Shown: one piece after another, positions 3,849 to 8,137 of the stretch | Layout: every line of letters begins with the position of its first letter | Position numbering within the stretch: position 1 is the stretch's first letter | DNA from: a virus | Taxonomy: Duplodnaviria; Heunggongvirae; Uroviricota; Caudoviricetes | Length of the DNA: 13,614 nt | Reading direction: 5' to 3' (one strand) | IMG/VR virus record: IMGVR_UViG_2648501498_000002 | Position numbers and translations under genes: made by a program | Notes under the pieces: model-generated | Databases searched by the model: none | What the model saw: only the letters and a program-made list of their open reading frames with translations | What the model was told of the DNA's origin: nothing

Positions 3849-4510
3849 ATATCTACGAAAGAATTGATGGCAGCAAATACCGAAATATCTGGGTAGCTGG
3901 CGACCTGCACGGATGCTACACGAACCTGATGAACAAACTGGATACGATTGGATTCAACAACAAAAAAGACCTGCTTATCTCGGTGGGCGATTTGGTTGAT
4001 CGTGGTGCAGAGAACGTAGAATGCCTGGAATTAATCACATTCCCCTGGTTCAGAGCTGTACGTGGAAACCATGAGCAAATGATGATTGATGGCTTATCAG
4101 AGCGTGGAAACGTTAATCACTGGCTGCTTAATGGCGGTGGCTGGTTCTTTAATCTCGATTACGACAAAGAAATTCTGGCTAAAGCTCTTGCCCATAAAGC
4201 AGAAGAACTTCCGTTAATCATCGAACTGGTGAGCAAAGGTAAAAAATATGTCATCTGCCACGCCGATTATCCTTGTGACGAATACGAATTTGGAAAGCCA
4301 GTTGATCATCAGCAGGTAATCTGGAACCGCGAACGAATCAGCAACTCACAAGACGGGATCGTGAAAGAAATTAAAGGCGCGGACACGTTCATCTTTGGTC
4401 ATACGCCAGCAGTGAAACCACTCAAATTTGCCAACCAGATGTATATCGATACCGGCGCAGTGTTCTGCGGAAACCTCACATTGATTCAGGTACAGGGAGA
4501 AGGCGCATGA
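3845..4510 (+). CDS. Ser/Thr protein phosphatase (lambda PPase / NinI, calcineurin-like metallophosphatase)
   Basis: 221 aa with the metallophosphoesterase motifs GDLHG, GDLVDRG and GNHE. Matches lambda phosphatase (221 aa). Starts at ATGA overlapping the ninG stop, so no ninH lies between them. Confidence 0.9.
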
Positions 4511-5130
4511 GACTCGAAAGCGTAGCTAAATTTCATTCGCCAAAAAGCCCGATGATGAGCGACTCACCACGGGCCACGGCTTCTGACTCTCTTTCCGGTA
4601 CTGATGTGATGGCTGCTATGGGGATGGCGCAATCACAAGCCGGATTCGGAATGGCTGTATTCTGTGGTAAGCACGAACTCAGCCAGAACGACAAACAAAA
4701 GGCTATCAACTATCTGATGCAATTTGCACACAAGGTATCGGGGAAATACCGTGGCGTGGCAAAGCTTGAAGGAAATACTAAGGCAAAGGTACTGCAAGTG
4801 CTCGCAACATTCGCTTATGCGGATTATTGCCGTAGTGCCGCTACGCCGGGCGCAAGATGCAGAGATTGCCACGGTACAGGCCGTGCGGTTGATATAGCCA
4901 AAACAGAGCAGTGGGGGATAGTTGCTGAGAAAGAGTGCGGAAGATGTAAAGGCGTCGGTTATTCAAGAATGCCAGCAAGCGCCGCATATCGCGCTGTGAC
5001 GATGCTAATCCCAAACCTTACCCAACCCACCTGGTCACGCACTGTTAAGCCGCTGTATGACGCTCTGGTTGTGCAATGCCACAAGGAAGAGTCAATCGCA
5101 GACAACATTTTGAATGCGATCACACGTTAG
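4507..5130 (+). CDS. Q: Late-gene antiterminator Q (lambda type)
   Basis: 207 aa, [47 protein letters not shown]...[12 protein letters not shown]...[14 protein letters not shown], near-identical to lambda Q including the zinc-binding Cys cluster. Confidence 0.92.
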
Positions 5131-5172
5131 CGCCATGATTGCCACGGATGGCAACATATTAACGGCATAATA

Positions 5173-5235
5173 TTGACTTTTTGAATAACTTTGGGGAAAC
5201 TTGACACCAATAATGGGCGTTTTTTACATGTCATT
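5173..5235 (+). promoter_or_regulatory. pR'-like late promoter / qut region
   Basis: The sequence tattgactttttgaataactttggggaaacttgacaccaataatgggcg parallels the lambda pR' region just downstream of Q. Candidate sigma70 elements are TTGACA (5201-5206), a 17-nt spacer and TTACAT (5224-5229). An upstream TTGACT (5173-5178) is the positional equivalent of the lambda pR' -35 but has a poor -10 (gaaact). Confidence 0.45.
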
Positions 5236-5366
5236 GATGAGTCTCAATAACCTGCCGCCGAGTAGTTTTATGCTCTGAATTGTATTTGTGTAGTAAACAT
5301 GCTGACTGCAATGTAATAGAGTTTTTTTAGCCTGTAACCTCTTGACGGCATTGAATTGCTTTTGTT

Positions 5367-6125
5367 ATGAGTTGTAAGCCAATGTTATCATCTTGTATTG
5401 GGGTGGTTATGAAGGATGGTGCGCTGCTCAGGAGTTCTTCACTTTTTATTGCCTACATGGGATGCCTTGGATGGGGGAGTGCTTATTTCTATGGATGGGG
5501 TACTTCTTTTTACTACGGCTTCCCATGGTGGATTGTAGGAGCAGGTGTTGATGATGTTGCCAGAAGTTTATTTTTTGCAGTTATCGTCATTGCTATATTT
5601 CTTATCGGTTGGGGTATTGGTGTTGTATTCTTTTTCGCAGTGAAAAGAAAACATTCTATGCAAGAGCTAAATGTATTTCGCCTTTATTTTGCTGTGGAAT
5701 TATTGTTTGTGCCGGCAATTATTGAGTTTTCTATATTGAGACAGAAGATTCAGGTACCTCTTTTGCTACTGTCAGCAGCGATTGCGCTGGCGGTTACAAT
5801 TTCGATAAGATCTTATGGGCGATTTTTATCGGTATCATGCTTCTATGATAAGCCATTTATAAAAAAACATTTTTTTGAGATTGTGATGATTGCTTTTGTG
5901 GCATATTTCTGGCTTTTTTCATTTCTGACAGGATATTACAAACCGCAGTTTAAGAAAGAATATGAAATGATTAATTATAATGATGGTTGGTATTATGTTC
6001 TTGCTCGTTATGATAATTGTCTGGTTTTGTCTACTTCTTTCAATGCAGGTAGTAAAAGGTTTGTCATTTATCAATCAGCACAAGATAAGAATCTTCAGGT
6101 TGATATTGTAAGGACCAGAATTTAA
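5367..6125 (+). CDS. Hypothetical polytopic membrane protein (about 5 predicted TM helices plus about 60-aa C-terminal domain); cargo gene of unknown function
   Basis: 252-aa ORF in a markedly AT-rich stretch. Hydrophobic segments include LFIAYMGCLGWGSAYFYGWG, LFFAVIVIAIFLIGWGIGVVFFFAV, FRLYFAVELLFVPAIIEFSIL, VPLLLLSAAIALAVTISI and FFEIVMIAFVAYFWLFSFLTGYY, with an aromatic-rich loop (FYYGFPWW). The start is ambiguous: ATG 5367 has no SD, and ATG 5382 and ATG 5409 (preceded by ggggtgg) are alternatives. No family recognised. Confidence 0.55.
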   Translation: MSCKPMLSSCIGVVMKDGALLRSSSLFIAYMGCLGWGSAYFYGWGTSFYYGFPWWIVGAGVDDVARSLFFAVIVIAIFLIGWGIGVVFFFAVKRKHSMQELNVFRLYFAVELLFVPAIIEFSILRQKIQVPLLLLSAAIALAVTISIRSYGRFLSVSCFYDKPFIKKHFFEIVMIAFVAYFWLFSFLTGYYKPQFKKEYEMINYNDGWYYVLARYDNCLVLSTSFNAGSKRFVIYQSAQDKNLQVDIVRTRI

Positions 6126-6372
6126 TTGGCTGCATAAATAATATTTTAAGTTGCAAGTTGGCTATTCGTAGGAATAGAACCTTAGGCATGCTGAATGCGT
6201 TTTCTGAACATTGTTTTATAAACTGTGTCTGCTTGCTGTTGTGATCCTGCTTTTAGTGATGGTGATGATGGATTTCACCAGCAGGATAATGTTGGTACTG
6301 ACTGATGGCGCTCTGGTCTGCGGCATTGTGGTATTGCTGTGGCCGATGATGAAAGAACAGAATGAATAATTC

Positions 6373-6555: not shown

Positions 6556-6582
6556 GGCTGCGCATGGCGCGGCCTTTTTTTT
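6556..6582 (+). terminator. Rho-independent terminator (tR'-like position, about 400 bp upstream of the holin)
   Basis: 7-bp GC-rich stem ggctgcg (6556-6562) / cgcggcc (6568-6574) with loop catgg, followed by eight T residues (6575-6582). Confidence 0.55.
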
Positions 6583-6760
6583 ATGACCTGCCACTGGCAG
6601 ATGGTCATCCTGTGATTTGATTCCGGTTCCGGCTTTTTAACTCTGTTCCTGTACACGGGAGAAATTCTATGTCGATTAATCGTTATGATATTGGTTACAA
6701 GAAGTACCACGTATTGTGTTGAGATAGAAAGCCTGGTGCCAGAGGTAAATGCAGCAGCAT

Positions 6761-6811
6761 AATAAAAAAGAGCCAGCGCAGAAGAGAACGGGTAAAAGAG
6801 TCTGCGCTGGC
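6761..6811 (-). terminator. Minus-strand hairpin plus T-run (candidate intrinsic terminator or 3' end of a small RNA)
   Basis: Perfect 11-bp inverted repeat gccagcgcaga (6772-6782) / tctgcgctggc (6801-6811) with an 18-nt loop. On the minus strand the hairpin is followed by tcttttttatt (complement of 6761-6771). No T-run follows it on the + strand. Confidence 0.4.
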
Positions 6812-6990
6812 GTGGGGATATTCCCCGTGGAGAAATGATATGTAACACACATCGGGAACCTTTCTATATAAACATTATCATTATTGTCAATCATAACAGT
6901 CAGGTATTATGACGTTTATGCATCAGGGCCATCAGGAATTAACTGGTGGCTTTTTATTGTTGTCAGCTTCCGGATAACGGGAGACGGGGT

Positions 6991-7206
6991 ATGTACCAGA
7001 TGGAAAAAATCACAACAGGTGTGTCATACACCACGTCAGCGGTGGGGACGGGATACTGGCTACTGCAGTTGCTGGACAAAGTCTCCCCATCCCAGTGGGT
7101 GGCAATAGGCGTATTGGGTAGCCTGGTGTTTGGCTTGCTGACGTATCTGACAAACCTTTATTTCAAGATTAAAGAAGATAAGCGTAAGGCTGCGAGAGGT
7201 GAATAA
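6991..7206 (+). CDS. S: Class II holin / pinholin, phage-21 S21 type, with dual-start motif
   Basis: 71 aa, [71 protein letters not shown], with two TM domains and Met1/Met4 dual starts as in S21 (71-aa antiholin, 68-aa holin). Preceded by gggagacgggg. The ORF-track start at 6946 adds 15 residues not found in S21. Confidence 0.85.
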
Positions 7207-7703
7207 TGTCGCCATCATTACGCAAGGCTGTTGCTGCTGCTATTGGTGGTGGGGCTGTTGCCATAGCGTCTGTGCTCATCACTGGTCCGAGTGGTGACGA
7301 TGGCCTGGAAGGTGTCAGCTACATACCATACGAAGATATCGTTGGCGTATGGACTGTATGTCACGGACACACCGGAAAAGACATCATTCCCGGTAAAACG
7401 TATACCGAAGCAGAATGCAAAGCCCTCCTGAATAAAGACCTTGCCATGGTCGCCAGACAAATTAACCCGTACATCAAAGTCGATATACCGGAAACAACGC
7501 GCGGCGCTCTTTACTCGTTCGTTTACAACGTGGGCGCTGGTAATTTCAGAACATCGACGCTTCTTCGCAAAATAAACCAGGGTGATATCAAAGGCGCATG
7601 TGACCAGCTACGTCGCTGGACATACGCTGGCGGTAAGCAATGGAAAGGGCTGATGACCCGTCGTGATATTGAGCGTGAAGTCTGTTTGTGGGGGCAGCAA
7701 TGA
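7206..7703 (+). CDS. R: SAR endolysin (signal-anchor-release lysozyme, phage-21 R21 type)
   Basis: 165 aa. The N-terminal Gly/Ala-rich weak TM segment [20 protein letters not shown] is the SAR domain. Catalytic residues Glu35, Asp44 and Thr50 are in T4-lysozyme-like spacing (E-8-D-5-T). Start overlaps the holin stop (TAATG). Confidence 0.88.
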
Positions 7704-8137
7704 GCAGGGTAACCGCGATTATCTCCGCTCTGGTTATTTGCATCATCCTCTGCCTGTCATGGGCTGTTAATCATTACCGTGATAACGCCATCGCCTACAA
7801 AGAGCAGCGCGATAAAGCCACATCCATCATTGCTGATATGCAGAAGCGTCAACGTGATGTAGCAGAACTCGACGCAAGATATACAAAGGAACTTGCTGAT
7901 GCTAACGCGACTATCGAAAGTCTCCGTGCTGATGTTTCTGCTGGTCGTAAGCGCCTGCAAGTCGCCGCCACCTGTGCAAAGTCAACGACCGGAGCCAGCG
8001 GCATGGGCGATGGAGAAAGCCCAGGACTTACAGCAGATGCTGAACTCAATTATTACCGTCTCCGAAGTGGAATCGACAGGATAACCGCGCAGGTTAACTA
8101 CCTGCAGGAGTACATCAGGACGCAGTGCTTAAAATAA
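7700..8137 (+). CDS. Rz: Rz i-spanin (inner-membrane spanin subunit)
   Basis: ATG at 7700 overlaps the endolysin stop (ATGA). The translation [39 protein letters not shown]... matches the N-terminal TM and coiled-coil region of lambda Rz. The ORF-track start at 7688 is an upstream GTG. Confidence 0.85.
7899..8084 (+). CDS. Rz1: Rz1 o-spanin (outer-membrane lipoprotein), embedded in the +1 frame of Rz
   Basis: ATG at 7899 preceded by aagga. 61 aa, [42 protein letters not shown]..., with a lipobox (VSAC) and a Pro-rich mature region, lying wholly inside Rz in a different frame as in lambda. Confidence 0.7.

Follow-up and report, generated by a model that had tools for sequence, protein, structure and literature searches.

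The late-control and lysis region of a lambda-like E. coli prophage reads as an ordinary lambdoid mosaic from a widespread prophage lineage

The lambda-type Q cassette consists of the Q gene, the late promoter pR' with its Q-binding element, a sigma-dependent pause element, a terminator, and the late genes, and the loading of Q at the Q-binding and pause elements produces an RNA polymerase that is resistant to terminators (PMC9388147). In lysis systems of the phage 21 type, a pinholin collapses the membrane potential and frees a signal-anchor-release (SAR) lysozyme, and an extra basic residue on the longer product of the holin gene S21 makes that product an antiholin (PMC9636201). This report concerns positions 4507–8137 of IMG/VR record IMGVR_UViG_2648501498_000002, a stretch of 13,614 nucleotides (nt) that is referred to as the window, in which a lambda-type Q and pR' are followed by two passenger (cargo) genes, a pinholin, a SAR endolysin, and the spanins Rz and Rz1. 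The list of open reading frames (ORFs) and the annotated relatives identify the window as the right arm of a lambdoid prophage. Lambda shares ninI, Q, and pR' to about +10 with the window at 96.7% nucleotide identity, has the same late-operon logic, and has Rz1 embedded in Rz in the same way. It is unlike the window in that tR' directly follows pR', there is no cargo block, the holin is of class I (S105/S107), and the endolysin R is cytoplasmic and, by annotation of its HK97 homologue, belongs to a transglycosylase family. Pinholins form small channels of about 2 nm and are unable to release a cytoplasmic endolysin.

The interval 4507–8137 is best read as an ordinary mosaic late and lysis region of a lambda-like E. 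coli prophage, of a kind that is already known. We put at roughly 0.9 the probability that it is a Q-dependent late-control and lysis region inherited whole from a widespread E. coli prophage lineage that resembles Sakai Sp17 and phage 2B8. Many complete E. coli genomes contain the interval in one piece, with 100% coverage and 99.0–99.4% identity; 43 records match it at 99% identity or more, and 236 genomes cover at least 80% of it. Of 5,426 genomes, 556 have the junction between the lambda-type pR' and the cargo (5150–5400) at 99% identity or more, among them that of O157:H7 Sakai with Sp17. No named phage in the phage collection covers the whole interval, and the best match, 2B8, reaches 83% coverage with an insertion and a different 3' end of Rz. 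The preliminary description of this DNA held that the interval is a mosaic relative to lambda, phage 21, and DLP12, and sliding identity comparison agrees. It also took uniform similarity to one known phage as the finding that would speak against a mosaic; such similarity is absent among the named phages and is present in the E. coli prophages. Because the full interval and its junction are widespread in E. coli genomes and the ninG-Q-pR'-cargo block occurs in the cultured phage 2B8, the mosaic is real but ancestral and well represented. The arrangement is evidently old and widespread and is not a new junction.

The block structure was determined from blastn high-scoring pairs and 100-nt sliding identity against nine references (lambda, 21, DLP12, 434, 2B8, 1717, HK97, BTP1, and an E. 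coli prophage), and the breakpoint in Rz was fixed by a mismatch map of the lysis cassette. By this comparison at least five blocks make up the region, and known phages combine them differently (Table 1). Lambda is homologous at the nucleotide level between 3854 and about 5217 (96.7% overall, 92–100% per 100-nt window), and the homology stops about 10 nt into the pR' transcript, after ATGGG. The seam is seen in a second phage too, since HK97 leaves lambda at nearly the same point. The segment 6694–6996 has a 97.7% match upstream of the holin in phage Evi, identity to phage 1717 begins at 6923, and a further breakpoint lies within about 6923–6997. Phage 21 is 71% identical in the holin, and its identity rises to 97% toward the end of the endolysin. 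At 7816, inside Rz, lambda, 21, DLP12, and 434 diverge and carry 8 extra codons; past this point HK97, 1717, and BTP1 continue at 92–98% to the end of Rz. The downstream boundary is therefore inside Rz, at the start of the periplasmic part that overlaps Rz1, and not at the border between endolysin and Rz. Comparison with the Shiga toxin (Stx) phage 1717 shows no breakpoint anywhere from 6923 to 8137. Either type of Rz is common behind cassettes of the S21/R21 type, with many phages matching only to 7816 and Stx phages matching through Rz.

The pinholin and the SAR endolysin had been described as a matched pair with a module boundary on each side. BTP1, a P22-like phage, speaks against the pairing: its SAR endolysin is 90% identical to that of the window, its holin is only 39% identical, and nucleotide homology of at least 95% is not reached until the second half of the endolysin gene. 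The pair is, judging from these comparisons, not an indivisible unit. The boundaries also fall elsewhere, with the end of lambda homology 1.8 kb upstream of the holin and the downstream breakpoint within Rz. The picture is that of textbook lambdoid module exchange, in which Q/pR', the passenger block, the holin–endolysin pair, and the periplasmic part of Rz/Rz1 each recombine separately. Instead of gene borders, the breakpoints follow functional seams, one just past the pR' pause site and one at Rz codon 39, where the Rz1-interacting part starts. The passenger site between pR' and the holin is where phage 1717 has its Shiga-toxin genes.

The Q protein is identical to lambda Q at 202 of 207 positions (97.6%) and to Sakai Sp17 Q at all of them. 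The five differences from lambda are A51V, L135Q, R138I, V140A, and V205I; residues C53, H56, L58, L202, and T206, whose substitution impairs antitermination (PMC9388147), are all kept. A promoter with a putative Q-binding element lies directly 3' of Q, as in a lambda-type Q cassette, which is in line with the earlier assignment of Q and its adjoining downstream sequence to the lambda type. The −35 element of pR', TTGACT (5173–5178), is identical to that of lambda. The 17-bp spacer, which would carry the Q-binding element, has three changes relative to lambda, one of which is common to HK97 while another is at a position where HK97 differs too. The −10 element is GAAACT (5196–5201) compared to TAAATT in lambda, and a −10-like pause element, AATAAT (5209–5214; AACGAT in lambda), is followed by a conserved GGG. 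Three of the five Q substitutions (L135Q, R138I, and V140A) cluster at codons 135–140 (window 4909–4926); the zinc-ribbon "arm" of Q comprises residues 114–152 (PMC9388147). Co-variation between the arm tip and two changed bases of the pR' spacer was considered and rejected; SC477, 2B8, and the window have the same pR' and different arm tips.

The holin is S21-like with a dual start, as had been proposed. The gene has 71 codons, and in-frame ATGs at 6991 and 7000 (codons 1 and 4) predict products of 71 and 68 residues. A GGAG lies seven nt 5' of the first ATG, and the mechanical start of the ORF, 6946, is upstream of the real start at 6991. The protein is 74.6% identical to S21, 83% to DLP12 EssD, and 97–99% to the holins of 434, 2B8, and Stx phage 1717. 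Its hydropathy matches that of S21: only the second transmembrane domain (TMD2) passes the threshold, TMD1 (about residues 8–28) is weakly hydrophobic and rich in G, S, T, and A, and the C-terminus is charged. The extension of the long form is M-K-S in S21 and EssD, MYQ in phage 1717, and MHQ in 434 and 2B8.

The endolysin is 93.3% identical to R21 and 94.5% identical to RrrD, both of which have solved structures. It has E35, D44, and T50, the Glu-8 aa-Asp-5 aa-Thr triad of the T4-lysozyme type, so that the earlier view of this gene as a SAR lysozyme like those of phage 21 and DLP12 is upheld. Residues 4–31 are weakly hydrophobic and Gly/Ala-rich (57% G/A/S/T), as expected of a putative SAR domain, and differ from R21 only at position 18 (V for I) and position 31 (D for N).

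There is a discrepancy regarding the spanins. The preliminary description had Rz1 embedded in Rz and both proteins close to those of lambda. The first part holds, with Rz1 lying wholly inside Rz in the +1 frame at an offset of 199 nt; the second does not. Rz (145 residues compared to 153 in lambda) matches lambda Rz at 88 of 144 positions (61%), and Rz1 matches lambda Rz1 at 23 of 58 (40%). Rz is 96.6% and Rz1 96.7% identical to the HK97 proteins, and both are 95–96% identical to those of Stx phage 1717. Rz is lambda-like in its first 39 codons only, and its identity to the Rz proteins of 21, DLP12, and 434 is also 61%. Phage 21, DLP12, and 434 themselves carry lambda-type Rz/Rz1, so a lambda-like Rz would in any case mark no boundary. 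A hydrophobic stretch at residues 1–28 of Rz is consistent with an N-terminal transmembrane segment followed by a periplasmic domain. Rz1 contains only the lipobox Cys20, and the periplasmic part of Rz contains C92 and C143. Lambda Rz1 has a second, periplasmic Cys that is missing from the Rz1 of the window; in lambda this residue has a role in disulfide-linked dimers. The main value of these results is for annotation, in that the spanin allele is of the HK97 type and not of the lambda type.

The cargo has a guanine-plus-cytosine (GC) content of 32–41%, compared to about 50%, and forms a low-GC island. The multi-pass membrane protein gene encodes several hydrophobic stretches and is 98–100% identical to 434 at the nucleotide level. 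PADLOC found no defence systems in the cargo, and Pfam and NCBIfam gave no match for the 252-aa ORF at 5367–6125, the 64-aa ORF at 6426–6620, or the minus-strand ORF at 6450–6848. Downstream of the cargo genes is the remnant of an esterase gene. By blastn, 6600–6693 corresponds to positions 4334–4427 of the 434 record (L001) and 6694–6778 to positions 6182–6268, the 434 coding sequence being 4403–6253. Compared to 434, the gene has cleanly lost about 1.75 kb from its interior, and the same deletion is present in E. coli prophages that are 99% identical. Cargo, holin, and endolysin travel together in 434 and 2B8, and in Sakai Sp17 the cargo membrane-protein gene, an esterase gene, and a holin are likewise linked; the cargo is therefore not on a genome-specific junction. 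The proposal that the upstream boundary coincides with the cargo island is thus half right: lambda homology does stop before the low-GC cargo, but the junction is not particular to this genome. Two small ORFs overlap this area. The minus-strand ORF at 6450–6848 (132 aa) is annotated as hypothetical in SC477 and is probably spurious, since it overlaps a strong terminator and the esterase remnant. A second ORF at 6506–6615 (MRTSLMLFPSIIFLVSSGC...) has a lipobox-like motif and contains the terminator hairpin inside its coding sequence; its 434 homologue is annotated as a putative membrane protein.

By analogy, the lambda-type Q would bind its site in the pR' spacer and load onto RNA polymerase paused at 5209–5214. 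The Q-modified polymerase would read through the terminators at 6556–6582 and 6925–6963, so that the two passenger genes for membrane proteins would be expressed first and the lysis cassette after them. The S21-family pinholin would depolarise the inner membrane, depolarisation would release and activate the membrane-tethered SAR lysozyme, and the Rz/Rz1 spanin pair would then disrupt the outer membrane.

Several points weigh against this account. All of its mechanistic steps are transferred from characterised homologues, and a window of 13.6 kb is too short to judge the inducibility of the whole prophage. The GAAACT −10 element of pR' is weaker than the TAAATT of lambda, and a consensus promoter scan does not return pR'. 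The terminator expected right after pR' is decayed: the copy at 5251–5276 has a mutated stem and a T-run of 4 compared to 8 in 434, and it folds no better than shuffled sequences (z 0.29 and −0.13), the controls being the 434 terminator (z −1.86) and lambda tR' (z −5.7). Additionally, the long form of the holin adds M-Y-Q without the basic residue of S21-71, which does not fit an antiholin. Because the MYQ extension lacks this residue, an antiholin function of the long form is unsupported, and dual-start antiholin timing control may not operate in the MYQ pinholin allele or in the Stx-phage alleles.

The decayed terminator leads to the first alternative. Lambda pR' is constitutive, and a constitutive pR' in the window could transcribe the membrane-protein gene and the TciB-like gene in a lysogen without Q, with the terminator at 6556–6582, which separates the two cargo genes from the lysis genes, still shielding the latter. 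No hairpin between pR' and the cargo within 5209–5332 (folds 5209–5285, 5236–5275, and 5270–5332) is better than shuffled sequences, and a terminator scan downstream of pR' finds none before 6556. In 434, unlike the window, the terminator at the same place after the late promoter is intact, and 556 genomes keep the arrangement of the window at 99% or more. The proposal is nevertheless pure deduction that depends on the strength of the GAAACT pR', on Rho-dependent termination, and on mRNA stability, and we consider it unlikely. More doubtful still is the fuller claim that the post-pR' terminator decayed in a widespread lineage, so that pR' drives both cargo genes without induction of the lysogen and the lysis genes still require Q. 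If true, it would mean that the 6S-RNA leader of lambda has been converted into a lysogenic-conversion transcript.

That the window is instead a decaying cryptic-prophage remnant like DLP12, with a late and lysis circuit that is no longer functional, is improbable. The internally deleted esterase, the decayed post-pR' terminator, and the weakened −10 element of pR' would suit such a remnant, but the frames of Q, the holin, the endolysin, Rz, and Rz1 are open over their full length and retain the catalytic and lipobox residues, and cosN is intact at 9486–9497. Nu1 and A are complete ORFs as well, the short ORF of W is intact, and SC477 has a portal gene annotated at the matching position. Furthermore, the Q/pR'/cargo block recurs at 96–100% identity in 2B8, which is a cultured phage. 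The idea of a distinctive recombinant, in which lambda Q/pR' and lambda Rz/Rz1 were joined to a phage-21/DLP12 pinholin–SAR pair with junctions flanking the pair and cargo acquired upstream, has in its favour that lambda homology does end before a low-GC cargo island and that the holin and endolysin are in the S21 and R21 families, but it can be set aside as very improbable because Rz/Rz1 are 61%/40% identical to lambda and 96–97% to HK97, phage 21 and DLP12 carry lambda-type Rz/Rz1 themselves, the holin shares just 75% of its residues with S21, the break on the downstream side falls at 7816 within Rz, and the whole interval occurs at 99% or more in many genomes, with cargo and cassette linked in 434 and 2B8. 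Inheritance of the whole region from the widespread prophage lineage is the reading that is retained.

Table 1. Positions of features and sequence blocks in the window
Feature	Position	Strand	Evidence or remark
O	up to 685		cut by window start
P	682–1383
ren	1380–1670
nin region, including ninB, ninG, and the ninI phosphatase	about 1725–4510
ninI serine/threonine phosphatase	3845–4510	+	opens the lambda-homologous block; blastn to lambda from 3854, 94–100% per 100-nt window; homologue annotated phosphatase in lambda, 434, SC477
Q, lambda-type late antiterminator	4507–5130	+	PF03589 at 4e-58; PDB 7ubm at 4e-136, full-length
pR' late promoter	5173–5217	+	alignment with lambda and HK97 pR'
Low-GC island	about 5200–6400
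Junction segment	5218–5248	+	no match to lambda or 434
Decayed terminator copy	5251–5276	+	aligns to terminator annotated after the Q82-type gene in 434 (L001 2981–3006)
Cargo: multi-pass membrane protein	5382–6125	+	247 aa from start annotated in relatives; phrog_1521 at 2e-154
Cargo: DUF3927/TciB-like small membrane protein	6211–6369	+	PF13064 at 3e-14; phrog_1470
First strong intrinsic terminator after pR'	6556–6582	+	GGCTGCGC-ATG-GCGCGGCC then T8; z −3.1; annotated terminator at homologous position in 434
SASA-family sialate O-acetylesterase remnant (nanS-p type)	6669–6778	+	opening 25 nt fused at 6693/6694 to the final ~72 nt and a further 15 nt beyond the gene
Terminator-like hairpin with T-run just upstream of holin	6925–6963	+	z −2.7; 434 also has an annotated terminator there, the two not aligned
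Lysis cassette	6991–8137
Class II holin, phage-21 pinholin family	6991–7206	+	PF04971 "P21 holin S" at 1.1e-32, cut-off 26 bits
SAR endolysin, GH24 lysozyme	7206–7703	+	PF00959 at 4e-45; PDB 4zpu (RrrD) 3e-106, 3hde 2e-105, full length
Rz inner-membrane spanin, HK97/Stx-1717 allele	7700–8137	+	145 aa; PF03245 at 6e-35
Rz1 outer-membrane lipoprotein spanin	7899–8084	+	PF06085 at 2e-20; lipobox VSAC, Cys20
Strong terminator-like hairpin with T-run immediately after Rz	8174–8208	+	z −4.2
Rha-family gene	8287–8904
cosN	9486–9497
Nu1, A, W, then region where SC477 has portal gene	from 9675
Block 1: lambda-type ninI-Q-pR'	to about 5217
Block 2: 434-type cargo	5249–6693		98% overall, mostly 98–100% per window
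Block 3: internally deleted esterase gene and spacer	6694–6996
Block 4: holin, endolysin, 5' end of Rz, 434/2B8/Stx-phage type	6997–7816		89–98%
Block 5: HK97/Stx-1717-type periplasmic Rz part with Rz1	7817–8137

Other parts of the window add some observations. The cosN site is the exact lambda sequence GGGCGGCGACCT; cos lies inside the window, so that the order of the DNA is that of a prophage, a circle, or a concatemer and not that of a virion. The segment 8140–8904 has no bor after Rz, unlike lambda, 21, 434, and DLP12, and has a Rha-family/ORF11CD3 gene instead. BTP1, a P22-like phage of Salmonella, is 80–100% identical to most of this segment at the nucleotide level, which suggests that modules are shared across genera. 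In the nin region, an ORF at 2180–2770 takes the place of lambda ninC and contains a DPPW motif (IYADPPWQY), as N6-adenine DNA methyltransferases typically do; the stretch from about 2184 to 2764 has no match in lambda. As leads for work on lysis and lysogenic conversion, the deleted esterase, the holin extension without a basic residue, and the lack of a terminator hairpin between pR' and the cargo stand out.

The known systems share different parts of the region with the window. Phage 21 and DLP12 have unrelated Q proteins (Q21 and QuuD). Their holins are of the same family (75% and 83% amino-acid identity) but start with MKSM and its basic residue, and their SAR endolysins (93% and 94.5%) have the same catalytic triad. 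Upstream of the holin, phage 21 has two tRNA genes, BTP1 also has tRNA genes, DLP12 has nmpC, and phage 1717 has Shiga-toxin genes and a full esterase gene; no tRNA genes are found in the window. Phage 434 has a Q82-type Q, with only a 5' fragment of a lambda-type Q, and behind it the cargo block 5249–6693 at 98% and a full esterase gene; its holin (97% amino-acid identity), its endolysin (96%), and the first 39 codons of its Rz are common to the window. HK97 has the same Rz/Rz1 allele paired with a lambda-type holin and endolysin. Of the Stx2-converting phages 1717 and 2851, 1717 matches continuously from the holin to the end of Rz at 95% (6923–8137).

The closest relatives are 2B8, Sakai Sp17, and other E. 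coli prophages. The cultured phage 2B8 (Alegriavirus) is continuous with the window through ninG-Q-pR'-cargo at 96% (3068–6693), its Q/pR'/cargo block being 96–100% identical by sliding-window comparison, and its holin and endolysin have 95.5% nucleotide identity. At the site of the deletion in the window, 2B8 has a truncated esterase gene and a mobile-element gene, and its Rz past 7706 is about 76% identical. Sakai Sp17 has an identical Q protein, a pR'/cargo junction at 99.6%, and the same membrane-protein gene. Unlike the window, it has a full-length 1.85-kb gene where 434 has the esterase, an additional ORF between holin and endolysin, and an insertion sequence (IS) element that cuts the endolysin. 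SC477 differs from the window outside the interval, in the nin region (about 1735–3068). Across 4507–8137 the E. coli prophages 382634_2f, RM14723, SC477, and O111:H- 11128 all have the same gene order as the window, with scattered point differences only.

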